DNA from: Bacteroidales bacterium
GTDB lineage: Bacteria; Bacteroidota; Bacteroidia; Bacteroidales; VadinHA17
Direction of reading: 5' to 3'
DNA length: 64,000 nt
Assembly (NCBI GenBank): GCA_036743455.1
Contig: DAINPM010000002.1
Location: 7,349 to 71,348, forward strand
The notes beneath the pieces were generated by a model. That model ran no database searches and was not told where the DNA came from. It saw only the letters and a program-made list of their open reading frames with translations. How positions within the stretch are numbered: position 1 is the stretch's first letter; every line of letters begins with the position of its first letter. This document shows, piece by piece, positions 1,348 to 6,750 of the stretch. A program made the position numbers and the translations under genes.

Positions 1348-2694
1348 TTACATATCAACCGGACTACCTCTGGTCCTTCCCATCCACGAAAGATCAATAT
1401 CCGGCCCAAAATGATCTTTGAAGATCCTGTAATAAAATAACTCTTCTTTCGAATTTATTATTAACCCATTCGATAATTTCCGTTCCTTCCTGAATACATT
1501 GTCTGTAATTTGTGATTCAGCATAGTCTTTTAATATCTCTTCCACTCCTGCACCTTCCCAGAATTTTACTTTTGGCCTGTAAAGAATATTTTCGGGAAGC
1601 AATCCCTTCATGGCCTGTCTGAGTATCCATTTTTCTGTATTATTATAGATTTTATACTTTGCAGGAATGGTAAATGCATATCTGACAATATCGGGATTGG
1701 CAAAAACCAGATGAGCTACCAGCCCATGGGCAGAGGCACAACGATCAACTCTTTGAAATGCAGTATTATGGAGGCTGCCGGTAATTCTGAGCAATTCATT
1801 TTCAAGACCTGATTGTGGAATTGATTTAAGGTATCTATATCCTGCAAACAACTCATCTCCCCCTTCTCCGGAAAAGACTTCACTCACATAATCAGAAGCC
1901 AGTTTTGCAACAAGATAATTAGTAATACTCGACCTCACCAAAAGGGCATCAAATGATTCAAGATGATAAATAACATCCGGTAATTTCTTTATCAGATCAT
2001 TTATAGTGACGATCATTTCGTGATGTTCCGATTTAATGAACTGTGCCATTTCTTTTGCATACCGCAGATCAGGTGCACCTTTAAACCCCGATGCAAAAGT
2101 CTTTAATCGTCTTATCTTTTTTGTTGCCAAAGCACATATTGCACTTGAGTCGAGGCCTCCGGAAAGCCATGATCCTACATCATCCGATTTAATACAATCG
2201 GATACTGCCCGGTCAAGATGATCAAGTAAATCAGCAGCTATAATACCAGGATCATCTTCAACAGTCTGCAAACCCTTTAAACGGAAAAAGGAATTCAGGC
2301 CCTCATTATCCAGAAAATGACCAGGAGGTAACTCCTTTATTTCATTGGTGACCGGTAGCAGTGCTTTCACTTCTGAAGCGAAACATAGATTCCCGTCCTT
2401 ATCACTTGCATAATATAAAGGAGCAACACCCAATTCATCACGATACAGGATAATATCTTTTTCTCCGGGTTTAACAAAGGCAAAATGACCCGGACCATTG
2501 TTATATGCCACATTACCTTCAGAGATATGTTTTCTGATACCTTCTATTTCCGATTCGTTCCAGATGAGTCCTACAGTATTTCCATTTGCTTCAAATACTG
2601 AAATCCCCGATATTCCCCTGTAACGGATCCTGTCAAGCATAGCTTCAACCTCCACGTTTGCACCTCTTGTTGCTATTCCTGCAATTCCTGCCAT
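1348..2694 (-). CDS. Asparagine-synthetase-B-family ATP-dependent amide ligase with no glutaminase nucleophile (Ala2) and a shortened N-domain.
   Basis: The start codon is ATG at 2692-2694. It has the PP-loop SGGLDSS (res 178-184) and the SGEGGDELFAGY motif. The N-terminus is MAGIAG where class-II amidotransferases have MCGI; codon 2 is GCA at 2689-2691. Confidence 0.8.
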   Translation of the reverse strand: MAGIAGIATRGANVEVEAMLDRIRYRGISGISVFEANGNTVGLIWNESEIEGIRKHISEGNVAYNNGPGHFAFVKPGEKDIILYRDELGVAPLYYASDKDGNLCFASEVKALLPVTNEIKELPPGHFLDNEGLNSFFRLKGLQTVEDDPGIIAADLLDHLDRAVSDCIKSDDVGSWLSGGLDSSAICALATKKIRRLKTFASGFKGAPDLRYAKEMAQFIKSEHHEMIVTINDLIKKLPDVIYHLESFDALLVRSSITNYLVAKLASDYVSEVFSGEGGDELFAGYRYLKSIPQSGLENELLRITGSLHNTAFQRVDRCASAHGLVAHLVFANPDIVRYAFTIPAKYKIYNNTEKWILRQAMKGLLPENILYRPKVKFWEGAGVEEILKDYAESQITDNVFRKERKLSNGLIINSKEELFYYRIFKDHFGPDIDLSWMGRTRGSPVDM

Positions 2695-2806
2695 ATCTCA
2701 ATTCCTTTCTTTTGTATACTGTGACAGTTTTTCTTTTCCTGCGTATTTATACAGGCAGGATAAAAACCTTATAAAATGTCGCAGTATTTAATAATTTATA
2801 ATCGTT

Positions 2807-4438
2807 TCAAATCCCCTTAAGCTTTTTAATTCTTTCTTCTTCAGTTAATCTCCTTCCCGTATTCCTGTCTATAGCGTACCATGCACCGTCAATAAGGTTT
2901 GTGGTAATAGTTCCACACAGATGTGGGTTTCCCTGGAAATGAGGTGTATCAAATAATCCCGTTTTTATTGCTTCAGCTATAACTGCAGCATCCGACCAGG
3001 GATCATCGCTTTTGTCCTTACCTCTTCTTCTAAGTTCTTCCAACAGAATCCGGGCCTCATTTTTTAATTCTTCCTTTCTTTCTCTTACAATTGTGTTTCC
3101 CGTCATGTCGGGTAATCCGTAGAGAGTATTATGAAGGACACCGTGTATTATATTACAGCTCTGTATGAGTTCATCAGGAAAGATTGCATGATCGCCTTCG
3201 CTGAATCCAACCACATGAAGAATATGTGGTTTAAGAGCCAGACTGATGACAGCTGATGCAGCCAGCTGACCCTTTGCTATGGAAGGATCAGCTGATAAAT
3301 GTGCCAAACCTGCCCTGACCTGACGGAATACAGTGAAAGAATCGTCATCCAGTTCTCTTATCATTTCATCTTTCGCCAGCATCTTTGCAATATCCATTTC
3401 AGCTGATGTCCCGGGTGGATTATTAAACATATACTGTGATACATAGTGCCGGACTCCGGCTTTTTTTGCATTGTAAGCTGCCAGAAAGGCCATTGCCACT
3501 GCCAGAGGATCATGCGCATCTCTAAGACTCCACTGATGTGATTCGTTAACTTCAACAGGAATACCTTTAAGGGCATACCAGTGCATTACTTCCTGATTCT
3601 CTCTTATCGCTTCTTCCATTGGTCTTTTTGATCTTCCGTCAATGACATTATACCAACATAAGGGTATTGCACCCCATGCATTATTTATCGTCCTGACACT
3701 CATCTCCGCCCACTTCATAAGATCACGTGTTCCGGCATAACATCTGACCAGGGGGTAGTTTCCACATCTCGTACTATTGTATATGGCTTCAAGATCTTCT
3801 GCCTTTCTTAGAGGAACACCACCTGCTCCATCCTGAGTGGGATCCATATCGTCAGGATGAAAAAAATGCTCCTGCGCATTCTGATCAGGTCCAATACTTA
3901 GTACATCGAGCACACCGGCTTCTGATATTTTAATTACCCCCTCAAGGGTCTCTGCCATTGTAGGTCTGCCAAAATGATGACGCAGAAGAGGGTAAGGATA
4001 CTTTTGTTCTATTCTCCCAATAAGAGTATCAGATAATGAACCTTCAGCTGCCCTTATGTTTGTCCCTCTCAGATACTGTCTTATTGATTCAACAGACTCT
4101 GTACCGTTAAATACCTTTTCAAACAGTCCGGATTTTACTGCCCGTTCGGCTACCGGGGCTGTCCCTCCGAAAATCATTCTTGTCTTTTCTAATTCTGCTT
4201 TCTTTAATTCGGAACCAAGATCTGCAAACAGTTCTGCTGCTGCCTCAGGAGTCAGTCTGTAACTCAGAGCAGTTATATCTGGTTCTTCATCTCTTATTAA
4301 TCTGACAAGTCTTTCTACCGATACTGCAGGGCCAAAAGTAATAGTCCGATATCCTTCCATCTCTGCCAGCCTGAGAAAATGATGCAGCCCTGCAACATGC
4401 ACGCAACTGCCTATGGCAGCACCAATAATCTTTTTCAT
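2807..4438 (-). CDS. B12-binding-type Rossmann domain (N-terminal, about 120 aa) fused to a putative alpha/beta barrel of about 400 aa. It is mutase/aminomutase-like and its function is unknown.
   Basis: The motif series C12-V-H14-V-A-G17 ... S59 ... G91-G92 has the canonical DxHxxG/SxL/GG spacing. The C-terminal region (LLRHHFGRP..., NESHQW...) loosely recalls the glutamate mutase E / aminomutase barrel. The assignment rests on motifs only. Confidence 0.55.
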   Translation of the reverse strand: MKKIIGAAIGSCVHVAGLHHFLRLAEMEGYRTITFGPAVSVERLVRLIRDEEPDITALSYRLTPEAAAELFADLGSELKKAELEKTRMIFGGTAPVAERAVKSGLFEKVFNGTESVESIRQYLRGTNIRAAEGSLSDTLIGRIEQKYPYPLLRHHFGRPTMAETLEGVIKISEAGVLDVLSIGPDQNAQEHFFHPDDMDPTQDGAGGVPLRKAEDLEAIYNSTRCGNYPLVRCYAGTRDLMKWAEMSVRTINNAWGAIPLCWYNVIDGRSKRPMEEAIRENQEVMHWYALKGIPVEVNESHQWSLRDAHDPLAVAMAFLAAYNAKKAGVRHYVSQYMFNNPPGTSAEMDIAKMLAKDEMIRELDDDSFTVFRQVRAGLAHLSADPSIAKGQLAASAVISLALKPHILHVVGFSEGDHAIFPDELIQSCNIIHGVLHNTLYGLPDMTGNTIVRERKEELKNEARILLEELRRRGKDKSDDPWSDAAVIAEAIKTGLFDTPHFQGNPHLCGTITTNLIDGAWYAIDRNTGRRLTEEERIKKLKGI

Positions 4439-4479
4439 AGCGCAATTGTTTCAGATTAAATAATATCAGCAGCTCTTCT

Positions 4480-5583
4480 CTATTTGACCTGCTCTCCTAT
4501 TGCAAGTAAGCGGAGATCCCTGACACTCATTCCGGCAATGCCCAGGTTCTCTACTGTTCTGCCGTCTGCCCAGTAATCAGTATTATTAATTACGCAACCC
4601 AGTTGAATGATTGAATTAATGGACGGAGTACTTACATTAAGCATCTTTCCGGTTGAGGCTATCGGGACAAGACTGAAAGGGATATCTTCGTTGAGATATC
4701 TTACATTTAAGGATCGGGGTGCCATTATACCTCTGTAACCTGTGTTTTTTCTCATGGCTTCAAAGAGGGTATTACCTGCAGATGAATATGCCATATACAA
4801 CCACTGCTGTGCTGAAATAACACGTATTCCTATGGCCTCTGCCACTTTTATCCGCTCTTCGTCAATCATTTCAAGAACTCTTGTTACTCCAGGAGTTGCC
4901 CCTTCATGATAGAACTGGAAATCAATATCGTGTTCTATCCACCCAGCATTGAGAATACACAATGCAGGGTGAAACACACTCCCTATGTTCTCAAAACTCG
5001 TTTTTATAACATTGTCTCCCGGGACAAACTGAGGATACAACAGACGCAGTTTACTTATGAGATCCGGGATCAGATGTGCTCTTATCGTTGCCACAGGAAT
5101 TGAATGTTTTACCCTGAATATATGTACCTGCGACGGGCCGGTGGCCCGGGAAGCATAAATAAATGTCTGAGCTTCTCCTATTATAACATTTGTGTTTGCT
5201 TTCTTTTTTAACAAGACCTGCTTGAATTCGATAGCTCCGAATGTCCTTCCCGGATGAAGTACGATTATCTGATTATCTGACAGAAAAGGCGCCATTTGTT
5301 CAGCCATCCAGCGATGGCCATAAGCCGGAACAACAACCATTATGAACTCAACATCTTCTATGGCCTCTTTTATTGAGTTGGTAGCCATATTAAGCTTTCC
5401 GAACCCTTCAATCTCTCCTGTAAGTTCTATTGTCCCTGAAGATTTTACTCCCCATAACCTTTCTTCCCCTCTGTTAAACAGATTCACTTTATGCCCCATA
5501 AGTGCGAGATGACCGGCCATAGCCAGACCGCCATGCCCTGCACCAAGAACAGCAACCTTACGTATATCTGCATTAGCTGACAT
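4480..5583 (-). CDS. NAD(P)-dependent opine dehydrogenase family protein (octopine/nopaline dehydrogenase-like).
   Basis: It has the N-terminal dinucleotide fold KVAVLGAGHGGLAMAGHL and a C-terminal block GSVFHPALCILNAGWIE. The length of 367 aa is typical of the family. Confidence 0.75.
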   Translation of the reverse strand: MSANADIRKVAVLGAGHGGLAMAGHLALMGHKVNLFNRGEERLWGVKSSGTIELTGEIEGFGKLNMATNSIKEAIEDVEFIMVVVPAYGHRWMAEQMAPFLSDNQIIVLHPGRTFGAIEFKQVLLKKKANTNVIIGEAQTFIYASRATGPSQVHIFRVKHSIPVATIRAHLIPDLISKLRLLYPQFVPGDNVIKTSFENIGSVFHPALCILNAGWIEHDIDFQFYHEGATPGVTRVLEMIDEERIKVAEAIGIRVISAQQWLYMAYSSAGNTLFEAMRKNTGYRGIMAPRSLNVRYLNEDIPFSLVPIASTGKMLNVSTPSINSIIQLGCVINNTDYWADGRTVENLGIAGMSVRDLRLLAIGEQVK

Positions 5584-5651: not shown

Positions 5652-5659
5652 CAAATATA
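5652..5659 (-). promoter_or_regulatory. Candidate Bacteroidota -7 box (TATATTTG) for the 5583-1348 operon.
   Basis: The reverse complement of caaatata matches TAnnTTTG. It lies about 70 nt upstream of the ATG at 5583 and downstream of the terminator at 5741-5764. Confidence 0.3.
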
Positions 5660-5735: not shown

Positions 5736-5770
5736 GAAAAAAGGATGCCCATTTGAGCATCCTTCTAAAA
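5736..5770 (-). terminator. Intrinsic terminator downstream of the coiled-coil protein gene.
   Basis: A perfect 8-bp stem pairs aaggatgc (5741-5748) with gcatcctt (5757-5764) around an 8-nt loop. A U-run follows on the minus strand (A-run 5736-5742 on plus). Confidence 0.7.
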
Positions 5771-5798: not shown

Positions 5799-6665
5799 TT
5801 ACTTAAGTCTTAATCTGCAATTCCCGATATTTTTATCATTGCATATTATTTCAATCTTATACTCTCCTTTGTCCAATTTTTCTTCAGCCAAATATGTAAG
5901 AGAAACTGTTCGCATCTGTTCTGCCTTTCCAGGCATAGATGAAAGAGAAGCAGTATAAGAATCCTTATCAGGTAATATATCCCAGCTAAGAGATGAATTA
6001 TCAGGTGTTATTGTTGTTCCTGAAGGAGTAGTGATCGTGAAACTTATTTCTTCTGACAGATCCTGTGGCACTTCAAATTGCACATTAAGCTTCTTTGTCA
6101 GGCATGACCAGAAAGAAAGCTTTTCTCTTTTCCTGCCTCTTGAACCATAGGCAAGAAAATTATCTGAAGAATACAGTGACATCTCCTGTAACTGGCTTTC
6201 AAGAGATTCTTTTTCTTCTTCTATAGCAACAAGGTTGTTTTGCATTGTTTCATTTTCAGCTGTCTTTTCTTCAAATTCGGTTTTCAGACGCGCATATTCA
6301 TTTTCCAGACCGTCTTTCTCTTCTTTTATCACTTCCAGTTCAGCATTATTTTCTTCTAATGTTTTTCTTGCCCGTGACAAAGAAGCTATTGTTCTGTCTT
6401 TTTGAGTAAGGGATGTCTGCATGTCTGCAATTTCCTTACTGCTTGCTTCATTTACCGCCTGAAGGGAAGCAAGATCGTTTTTAACCTTTTCAAGCTCCTG
6501 TTCAACCTGAACCCGTTCTGATAAAAGAGATTCCGACTTAAGCTTTTCAGCATTCAGATTACGTTTTGTTTTGGCATTCACAAAAAATGCGCCGATTGCC
6601 AGGAGCAGTAAAAGTACCAAGATCACTGCCCCGATAATTACCTTCCTGTCCTGTTCTGATTCCAT
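5799..6665 (-). CDS. Membrane-anchored coiled-coil protein with a C-terminal beta-rich domain (hypothetical).
   Basis: The ORF-track start at 6716 is a TTG. The ATG at 6663-6665 gives MESEQDRK followed by the TM helix VIIGAVILVLLLLLAIGAFFV. About 140 aa of heptad-like E/K/L-rich sequence follows. No family was recognised. Confidence 0.6.
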   Translation of the reverse strand: MESEQDRKVIIGAVILVLLLLLAIGAFFVNAKTKRNLNAEKLKSESLLSERVQVEQELEKVKNDLASLQAVNEASSKEIADMQTSLTQKDRTIASLSRARKTLEENNAELEVIKEEKDGLENEYARLKTEFEEKTAENETMQNNLVAIEEEKESLESQLQEMSLYSSDNFLAYGSRGRKREKLSFWSCLTKKLNVQFEVPQDLSEEISFTITTPSGTTITPDNSSLSWDILPDKDSYTASLSSMPGKAEQMRTVSLTYLAEEKLDKGEYKIEIICNDKNIGNCRLRLK

Positions 6666-6750
6666 TTTTTTTTTAGTTTTAGTGTTATATATACAATAAT
6701 ATAACAATTTATTCAATTAATGAAAAAAACCGTGAAGAAAACCCGATAAA

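Follow-up and report, generated by a model that had tools for sequence, protein, structure and literature searches.

A three-gene operon occupies positions 1348-5583, on the minus strand, of a 64,000-nucleotide stretch of DNA from a Bacteroidales bacterium of the VadinHA17 lineage (contig DAINPM010000002.1), referred to here as the window. The operon encodes an opine dehydrogenase, a predicted B12-dependent mutase and a ligase related to asparagine synthetase B (AsnB). The evidence leans towards a role in the biosynthesis of a small, highly polar amino-acid derivative, formed via the mutase and the opine dehydrogenase, with the ligase as an optional addition. The enzyme classes, their key residues and the conserved linkage of the genes are established. 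From these we infer the exact chemistry, namely the substrate and product of the mutase, the order of the steps and the use of ammonia as the nucleophile, as well as the physiological role.

The list of open reading frames (ORFs) places the dehydrogenase gene at 4480-5583 (367 aa), the mutase gene at 2807-4438 (543 aa) and the ligase gene at 1348-2694 (448 aa), all on the minus strand. The intergenic gaps are 41 nt between the first two genes (4439-4479) and 112 nt between the second and third (2695-2806). An earlier reading of this DNA, made from its letters alone (the sequence-only reading), had described three co-directional genes with these spacings, and the ORF list confirms the layout.

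Conserved linkage and enzyme classes

A neighbourhood scan with one genome per species gave 43 loci, mostly in metagenome-assembled genomes (MAGs) of Bacteroidales/Rikenellaceae. Further taxa with operon genes are Lentimicrobiaceae, Ignavibacteria, Melioribacteraceae, a 'Deltaproteobacteria' MAG and a Syntrophomonadaceae MAG. The dehydrogenase gene lies immediately upstream of the mutase gene in all 35 loci with enough flanking sequence, at gaps of -47 to 153 nt, and this adjacency is far beyond chance. The ligase gene is immediately downstream of the mutase gene and co-directional with it in 29 of 38 loci. The sequence-only reading would have failed had the trio not been conserved as neighbours in other genomes; conservation was found for the pair, across phyla, and in part for the ligase. 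The dehydrogenase-mutase pair would be the functional core of the system, and the ligase a frequent accessory that appears to be both dispensable and replaceable. In Anaerolinea thermophila the order of the pair is reversed, with the dehydrogenase gene directly downstream of a gene for a mutase 45% identical to that of the window.

The dehydrogenase matches the Pfam family Octopine_DH (PF02317) at 8e-43 over residues 190-332. It also matches PDB entry 1bg6, the N-(1-D-carboxyethyl)-L-norvaline dehydrogenase of Arthrobacter (CENDH, also known as ArODH), at 1.8e-69 over residues 8-358, and its earlier description as opine-dehydrogenase-like is borne out by both matches. The Rossmann GxGxxG motif is present as G14-A-G16-H-G-G19. 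The catalytic residues His202, Arg292 and Asp297 of ArODH correspond to H205, R295 and D300 in the window enzyme, and the catalytic His is kept in 44 of 44 mutase-linked dehydrogenases. An N-terminal truncation was considered and rejected. The first tblastn search aligned from residue 32 in most loci; a search of another locus set with the filter off found the closest relatives to be full-length, so the apparent truncation was most likely due to low-complexity masking.

A study by Telek et al. (2024, PMC10787698) described six metagenomic opine dehydrogenases (mODH-45, -47, -48, -49, -55 and -582), about 40% identical to ArODH. Unexpectedly, these enzymes favour acidic L-amino acids (L-Asp, cysteate and L-Glu) together with pyruvate and, mostly, NADPH (PMC10787698). 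It was reported that a double exchange in ArODH, from Ala to Arg at position 111 and from Asn to Gly at position 198, swaps the specificity toward acidic amino acids, and that Arg35 is a marker of NADPH use (PMC10787698). The window dehydrogenase carries R113 and G201 at the two specificity positions (ArODH-111 and ArODH-198, respectively), and R37 at the position of ArODH-35. Among the mutase-linked dehydrogenases, the partners of very distant mutase paralogues included, Arg111 and Gly198 are each present in 44 of 44 and Arg35 in 43 of 44.

The window dehydrogenase is 44-53% identical to mODH-43/44/45/47/48, the sequences of which were transcribed from the supplement of the paper, and 52% identical to the enzyme of A. 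thermophila. The latter is 92% identical to the transcribed mODH-45, for which the closest UniProt entry was given as E8MYZ6, at 93% (PMC10787698). Judged by these identities, at least one characterised mODH has a near-identical relative inside a dehydrogenase-mutase pair. With its specificity taken from these orthologues, the window dehydrogenase would be an opine synthase of the mODH clade, acting on acidic amino acids and pyruvate. It is probably NADPH-dependent.

The kinetics of the mODHs with L-Asp are modest, with a kcat of about 1 per second and a KM of 0.5-25 mM (PMC10787698). L-Asp is converted clearly better than L-Glu by four of the six, in the extreme case at 76% vs 2%, while mODH-582 converts both about equally and mODH-55 favours L-Glu (PMC10787698). 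The low kcat and millimolar KM suggest that the native substrate is an Asp analogue outside the tested set, and the native amino-acid substrate of the dehydrogenase is probably neither Asp nor Glu. The study focused on biocatalysts; genomic context, B12 and physiological role are absent from it, and 3-methylaspartate was not among its substrates (PMC10787698).

The 543-aa protein is most likely a fused carbon-skeleton mutase dependent on adenosylcobalamin (AdoCbl), related to glutamate mutase and acting on a substrate that differs from that of glutamate mutase. Pfam identifies a B12-binding domain (2e-08, residues 3-98) and gives no match for the rest of the protein. Sequence searches of the PDB, with the single sequence or with a family profile, matched the B12 domain only. 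As the barrel is invisible to such searches, its relationship had to be sought by structure prediction and Foldseek. A confident AlphaFold2 model (pLDDT 89.7), built from a 24-sequence alignment, contains a Rossmann domain, a disordered linker (127-133), an eight-stranded barrel and a helical C-terminal part. The top Foldseek match in the PDB is glutamate mutase E (1cb7_B), with an E-value of 3e-16 and a TM(target) of 0.66 over 428 columns. The next matches are lysine-5,6-aminomutase, ornithine-4,5-aminomutase, methylmalonyl-CoA mutase and 2-hydroxyisobutyryl-CoA mutase.

Two parts can be assigned on the minus strand. The cobalamin-binding Rossmann domain, the equivalent of GlmS, spans residues ~1-125 (4064-4438). 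The TIM barrel with the C-terminal helical domain, a distant relative of GlmE by its predicted structure, spans residues ~141-543 (2807-4018). The proposal that this gene encodes a B12 domain followed by a barrel was accordingly upheld by Pfam and by the AlphaFold2/Foldseek barrel.

For the comparison with glutamate mutase, the glutamate mutase genes of E. coli O157 and 57 GlmE homologues were set against 49 representatives of the window family. The family profile aligned to GlmE profiles over residues 76-543 with hhalign probabilities of 94% and 87%, and the N-terminal domain aligned to E. coli GlmS with a probability of 82%. A single-sequence hhalign comparison with E. coli GlmE was insignificant (0.7% probability), significance being reached with the broader profiles only. 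The Pfam family Met_asp_mut_E is reached directly by six of 24 family members.

Glutamate mutase (GlmS/GlmE; PDB 1cb7, 1ccw and 1i9c) and the window mutase have several features in common. They share the TIM barrel, the GTxD motif and the equivalents of GlmE Tyr177 and Asn178, which are conserved in the family. The base-off/His-on cobalamin motif DxHxxG...SxL...GG is matched in part: C12-x-H14-x-x-G17 of the window protein aligns with D14-x-H16-x-x-G19 of GlmS, with H14 at the place of the cobalt-ligating His and Cys12 at that of the Asp, and S59-x-L and G91-G92 are present. Of the two adenosyl-ribose ligands of GlmE, one, Glu330, corresponds to E414, which is kept in 45 of 49 family members. 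Some distant members are fused to a PF13941 'MutL' (GlmL) domain. In E. coli, the glutamate mutase operon has a gene for PF13941/GlmL that stands between those for the S and E subunits. This domain is taken here to be of the AdoCbl-enzyme reactivase type, and the fusions argue for adenosylcobalamin radical chemistry in the mutase family.

The differences from glutamate mutase are equally clear. Glutamate mutase is an S2E2 heterotetramer, whereas the window mutase is a single chain with the S domain at its N-terminus, and its identity to GlmE is 15-19%. The family has no methylaspartase neighbour; its constant partner is the opine dehydrogenase. The Asp of DxHxxG is replaced by Cys in 27 of 49 representatives and retained in 17. 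This Cys is typical of the dehydrogenase-linked core subfamily, the distant subfamilies keeping Asp. The GlmE-invariant residues Arg66, Arg100, Arg149, Glu171 and Tyr181 align with H155, Q189, Y234, A254 or P259, and G268, and the second adenosyl-ribose ligand, Lys326, likewise invariant in GlmE, aligns with V410, in a comparison that uses a profile alignment at 17-19% identity. With all glutamate-binding residues replaced, the window protein represents a distinct mutase family, the substrate of which is probably not plain L-glutamate. The family has invariant residues of its own, namely R153, D267, R269, E296, D310 and H408.

A PLP-dependent aminomutase was also considered and rejected. Across the 24-sequence alignment, residues 1-125 contain no Lys that is invariant or nearly so, and the aminomutases are weaker structural matches than GlmE. 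Lacking a conserved PLP Lys, the protein looks more like a carbon-skeleton mutase than an aminomutase. The sequence-only reading had placed the barrel among the AdoCbl mutases in general; GlmE as the best structural match supports that kinship, and the aminomutase option it included does not stand. 2-Methyleneglutarate mutase carries its B12 domain at the C-terminus, unlike the window family.

The mutase family is large, with more than 7,000 sequences at E <1e-3 in a 90%-identity collection and 147 clusters at E <1e-30 in a 50%-identity library. Its members (P0004-P0065, P0033, P0053, P0058) bear database names such as 'methionine synthase' and 'methylmalonyl-CoA mutase cobalamin-binding subunit', neither of which is supported by the present results.

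The ligase matches Pfam Asn_synthase at 4e-62. In the PDB it matches E. coli AsnB (1ct9) at 2e-48, CarA at 7e-21 and beta-lactam synthetase at 6e-13. Its N-terminus reads MAGIAG, without Cys1, and the N-terminal nucleophile (Ntn) domain is shortened, the alignment beginning at AsnB residue ~117; the earlier label of a Cys-less AsnB-like protein is therefore apt. At residue 2, 26 of the 29 orthologues have Ala, and the remaining three have Ser, Pro or Thr. With Ala in place of Cys1, the ligase cannot hydrolyse glutamine. The absence of the N-terminal Cys nucleophile is also a feature of beta-lactam synthetase and CarA.

Similar to AsnB, the ligase has the two-domain fold, the PP-loop SGGLDS (S178-GGLDS) and the catalytic Glu (E277, the Glu of AsnB SGEGSDE), the last two conserved at 95% or more in the family. 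The SGEGGD of the ligase aligns with TGYGSD of CarA, Glu277 standing at the catalytic position where CarA has Tyr. A Glu of the AsnB type favours amidation over lactam closure. The ExRxPFLD motif of AsnB (GVEARVPFLD) is presumably the recogniser of free aspartate. At this position the ligase reads GLVAHLVFAN and is variable within its family, which makes a plain asparagine synthetase unlikely. The protein also falls below the cut-off of the NCBIfam AsnB model NF006949 (330 bits vs 499), and its match to TIGR03104 is weak (117 bits vs 570). Lasso-peptide cyclase, the AsnO of the NAGGN pathway and PEP-CTERM amidotransferase were tried and rejected, all being far below the NCBIfam cut-offs. The ligase is most likely an AsnB-type adenylating enzyme that amidates a carboxylate with free ammonia, its acyl substrate being other than plain aspartate.

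Two variants of the ligase were seen elsewhere. In an Ignavibacteria locus (L030:3369-4859) the gene after the mutase encodes a 496-aa AsnB homologue, 40% identical, which starts MCGIVA; this protein keeps the Cys nucleophile, and the third step may depend on glutamine there. At L065:4136-7103 and L066:4456-7401, a gene for a Cys-less ASN-like protein (MSGIVG, ~48-49% identical) lies directly after a gene for a MurD-like Mur ligase, with neither dehydrogenase nor mutase nearby. Such an arrangement hints at a separate ligase role, perhaps in the amidation of a peptidoglycan precursor.

The dehydrogenase is also paired with distant mutase subfamilies, at 30-41% identity, in loci L044, L050, L052 and L067. 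L044 comprises a dehydrogenase, a mutase fused to ATP-grasp, and GATase/Peptidase_C26. L050 contains a dehydrogenase, a mutase, a Ddl-like ATP-grasp and GATase/C26, and L052 contains a dehydrogenase with a mutase fused to MutL. In L045 a mutase paralogue, an ATP-grasp and a dehydrogenase, without GATase, are found within a polysaccharide cluster. The ATP-grasp ligases that occupy the ligase position in L044, L050 and L045 point to a conserved 'carboxylate activation' third step. Two further loci, L048 and L053, have a mutase without an adjacent dehydrogenase.

L067 (180-9716), on a high-GC metagenome contig, consists of seven co-directional genes: a dehydrogenase, a mutase paralogue of 626 aa (30% identical), a 2'-5' RNA-ligase-like gene, a 235-aa ORF, MscS, the ligase and an alpha-amylase-family gene. 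Here the trio has come together independently, accompanied by a mechanosensitive channel. L045 (146-12802) encodes a 620-aa distant mutase paralogue, with no Pfam match, in a polysaccharide-type cluster of glycosyltransferases, Bac_transf, ATP-grasp, SDR, aldo-keto reductase, DegT and an FdtA-like gene. The Octopine_DH protein of this cluster (418 aa) also has Arg111 and Gly198.

Proposed pathway and alternative explanations

In the favoured pathway, the mutase would use AdoCbl radical chemistry to rearrange an acidic substrate similar to glutamate into a branched acid that resembles aspartate (beta-methylaspartate type). Glutamate mutase, the one characterised enzyme that is closely related, turns glutamate into 3-methylaspartate. 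The opine dehydrogenase would join this branched acidic amino acid to pyruvate, with NADPH, to give an N-(1-D-carboxyethyl) opine. Where the ligase is present, it would adenylate one carboxylate of the opine and amidate it with free ammonia as an optional tailoring step. The end product would be an amidated N-(1-carboxyethyl) branched acidic amino acid, serving as a cytoplasmic anionic or zwitterionic solute for osmotic or ionic adaptation.

The suggested role comes from the neighbouring genes. Those recurring in independent arrangements encode MscS, a trehalose-6-phosphate synthase/phosphatase fusion, a GT2-HAD fusion and a ClC channel. A CitMHS-family transporter, MarC and a K-Cl-cotransporter-like permease are further recurring neighbours. 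Since neighbours of the osmotic type recur, a solute for osmotic or ionic stress is the preferred guess, and the product is possibly an osmolyte.

A known osmolyte pathway offers a parallel. NAGGN is made by Ngg, an ATP-grasp/GNAT protein, and by AsnO, a glutamine-dependent enzyme with Cys1. The pathway logic is alike in that an amino-acid solute is finished by an AsnB-family amidation, with ATP-grasp as the alternative in related clusters; the weak TIGR03104 match of the ligase belongs to this comparison. NAGGN synthesis differs in having neither a mutase nor an opine dehydrogenase.

Two sets of genes accompany the operon in some loci. A MarC-family membrane protein (PF01914, 6e-33) is encoded after the ligase and co-directionally in six loci from different lineages (L023, L025, L027, L029, L033 and L035; for example L023:10965-11600). 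It may be a fourth member of the operon, possibly a transporter of the product. An OmpR-type response regulator is encoded a short way upstream of the dehydrogenase gene in seven loci, in six of them with a histidine kinase. These genes are on the same strand as the operon in L002, L004, L015, L017 and L033, divergent in L023 and L028, and not adjacent in the window; they could regulate the operon.

Several observations count against the favoured pathway. The dehydrogenase-first gene order lends no support to a mutase that acts first. The glutamate ligands of GlmE (R/R/R/E) are invariant in 57 of 57 homologues, and 46-48 of the 49 members of the window family share the residues that replace them. 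The change from D to C in DxHxxG is unusual, and the 'beta-methylaspartate-type product' would be an extrapolation from the fold alone. The osmotic neighbour genes are lineage-restricted, and other contexts are found, namely the polysaccharide cluster of L045, the Mur ligase and FemAB of L052, and Bac_transf in Anaerolinea. Nine of 38 loci lack the ligase, among them close relatives of ligase carriers. Cys-less AsnB-like proteins of ~50% identity also occur without the dehydrogenase-mutase pair, which makes the ligase family broader than the operon.

The best of the alternatives, itself rather unlikely, reverses the order of the first two steps. The dehydrogenase would make N-(1-carboxyethyl)-Glu or -Asp, the mutase would rearrange this opine and the ligase would amidate the new beta-carboxylate. 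The gene order dehydrogenase-mutase-ligase, seen in 35 loci, agrees with such a sequence of steps. The mutase has lost the three Arg claws as well as Glu171, which in GlmE binds the free amino group, and its own invariant R153, R269, D267, E296 and D310 would suit a bulkier tricarboxylate substrate. The loss from the ligase of the motif assumed to recognise aspartate in AsnB is likewise compatible with an opine as acyl substrate. L-Glu is accepted by some mODHs, with a conversion of up to 96% (PMC10787698). The clear preference of four of the six mODHs for L-Asp over L-Glu, however, fits a native substrate that is Asp-like, their low kcat/KM with both Asp and Glu suggests that neither is native, and in Anaerolinea the mutase gene comes first.

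Somewhat less probable again is a ligase with no functional tie to the pair, such as a general ammonia-dependent amidotransferase that happens to be a frequent neighbour. Its absence from the nine loci noted above and the occurrence of ~50% identical Cys-less homologues in unrelated contexts (L061-L066, L068) would agree with independence, and make the link of the ligase to the operon weaker than that within the pair. The ligase gene nevertheless follows the mutase gene directly, in the same direction, in 29 loci that span several phyla, and it recurs with the 30%-identical mutase in L067. Other ATP-dependent carboxylate ligases fill its position in L044, L050 and L045, and a plain asparagine synthetase is unlikely, as the aspartate motif is not conserved.

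A slightly smaller probability attaches to an envelope building block, in which the ligase would couple the product to an amino group of peptidoglycan, of a polysaccharide or of a precursor. Carboxyethyl amino acids are constituents of some O-antigens. The distant mutase paralogue P0174, in the polysaccharide cluster, is accompanied by glycosyltransferases, Bac_transf, DegT, an FdtA-like protein, ATP-grasp and Octopine_DH; a Mur ligase and FemAB are encoded near the L052 pair, and the Anaerolinea pair sits after a Bac_transf gene. The ATP-grasp of L050 is of the D-Ala-D-Ala-ligase type, and the Cys-less ASN-like genes of L065 and L066 are beside that for a MurD-like ligase. All such contexts belong to distant paralogues, however. 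The window and the 40 closest loci show no envelope-biosynthesis genes adjoining the operon, and the pair is frequently without any ligase.

An opine-type metallophore, similar to staphylopine or pseudopaline and with the opine dehydrogenase as the last step, is improbable. The Octopine_DH family does include metallophore synthases of the CntM type, the proposed product would be an aminopolycarboxylate, and the MarC protein found after the ligase in six loci could act as an exporter. Against this, no gene for a CntL-like protein, CntK racemase, TonB-dependent receptor or ABC importer adjoins the operon in the loci examined. The dehydrogenase is nearest to CENDH and the mODHs, not to CntM, and amidation would cost the product one metal ligand. 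The sequence-only reading had named an osmolyte or a metallophore among the possible products; the former remains the preferred guess, and metallophore-type genes are missing beside the operon.

The same reading had left the choice between amidation and cyclisation open, and the AsnB-type Glu favours the former. Closure of a lactam ring at the opine's secondary amine, the kind of reaction that beta-lactam synthetase performs on N2-(2-carboxyethyl)arginine, is accordingly very improbable. The Cys-less AsnB architecture is common to beta-lactam synthetase and CarA, and the substrate, an N-carboxyalkyl amino acid with a beta-carboxylate, would be chemically analogous. However, the invariant E277 occupies the Tyr position in the alignment with CarA, the one used for this comparison, the similarity to AsnB is far above that to CarA or beta-lactam synthetase, and the chromosomal, housekeeping-like distribution gives no hint of an antibiotic.

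A catabolic role, in which the dehydrogenase would oxidatively cleave an environmental opine and the mutase would channel the amino acid to fermentation, is just as improbable: opine dehydrogenases are reversible, CENDH originates in a soil bacterium that utilises opines and clostridia use glutamate mutase in catabolism, but no methylaspartase, mesaconase, other downstream gene or uptake system is conserved beside the pair, an ATP-consuming ligase is linked to it, and Arg35 predicts NADPH, which is typical of biosynthesis.

Flanking genes and regulatory signals

Downstream, the operon converges on a gene for an APC/SLC12-type (K-Cl-cotransporter-like) transporter, at 68-1336 on the plus strand (NCBIfam TIGR00930, 9e-39). 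Only the 3' part of the gene is included, as it is cut by the start of the window; its full-length orthologue in L001 matches AA_permease at 5e-44. The transporter stop is 11 nt from the stop of the ligase gene, as had been stated. This neighbour is kept only in the MutS-syntenic Bacteroidales lineage, in 13 of 43 loci, and is regarded as no more than context for the operon.

Upstream, an intrinsic-terminator-like hairpin was found by a terminator scan at 5739-5766 on the minus strand, with a 12-pair stem (5 GC pairs), a 4-nt loop and a T-run. It lies directly 3' of the upstream gene (5799-6716), i.e., before the operon, where a terminator had been proposed. A candidate promoter element, the Bacteroidetes -7-like box TATATTTG, precedes the first ATG by 69 nt, at 5652-5659 of the minus strand. 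The TAnnTTTG box claimed for this site is present. The motif occurs at chance level, however, with 62 copies in the window vs 64.7 expected, so the box fits a Bacteroidetes promoter as weak support and is no evidence by itself. Sigma-70-like sites in the window are similarly at chance level (20 observed vs 22.9 expected). No riboswitch or other Rfam family was found in the operon leader or elsewhere in the window, the single match, to MicX, being below threshold (24 bits vs a cut-off of 75).

The upstream gene at 5799-6716 (minus strand) encodes a 305-aa protein that has a long coiled coil and, by prediction, a transmembrane segment at its N-terminus, and is situated between mutS and the operon. 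It is confined to the closest relatives, L001, L002 and L004. In the remaining MutS-syntenic loci, the dehydrogenase gene comes straight after mutS, without the coiled-coil gene.

A metagenome contig (Ga0116164_10002467, L060) is 100% identical to the window, and the proteins of a 'Bacteroidetes bacterium' MAG contig (L001) are 94-99% identical to those of the window. A search of plasmids gave no match, and a cluster look-up returned no informative names. DUF2202 (PF09968) was encountered twice, next to distant mutase-family members that are unrelated to each other: at L053:7827-8699 beside the MutL-fused P0162 and at L055:9320-10093 beside the Anaerolinea pair; the adjacency may be coincidence, or the protein may be an accessory one.

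Novelty and significance

From searches of Pfam, NCBIfam and the PDB, none of the three proteins could be assigned to a characterised pathway, in keeping with the view first taken of the operon. In the literature, no described pathway with the combination of mutase, opine dehydrogenase and ligase was found, the mODH paper being the only relevant one. The operon product is probably a small acidic amino-acid derivative that has not yet been described. The superfamily of each enzyme and the subclass of the dehydrogenase are known; what would be new is an AdoCbl mutase family within an undescribed opine pathway.

A broader claim, which can be put forward only tentatively, is that the 543-aa protein is the founding member of a new family of AdoCbl-dependent amino-acid carbon-skeleton mutases, acting not on free L-Glu but possibly on an N-carboxyethyl opine, and that, with its obligate opine-synthase partner, it makes a hitherto unknown class of branched opines that serve as compatible solutes. 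To our knowledge, about a dozen AdoCbl-dependent isomerase activities have been described and new ones are rare; we know of no other non-CoA carbon-skeleton mutase activity added since glutamate mutase and 2-methyleneglutarate mutase.

The mutase family is large, highly conserved and mis-annotated in public databases. Its constant pairing with an opine synthase of known in-vitro specificity provides a concrete and cheap experimental entry, with the candidate substrates defined, and A. thermophila is a cultured carrier of the pair. If the proposal is true, branched opines would be widespread in anaerobic Bacteroidota, Ignavibacteriota and Chloroflexota, and the missing physiological role of the mODH enzymes would be supplied. 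It would also add a new B12-dependent reaction and a new class of metabolites, and give a reason for the B12 dependence of the Bacteroidales that are abundant in anaerobic digesters and sediments.

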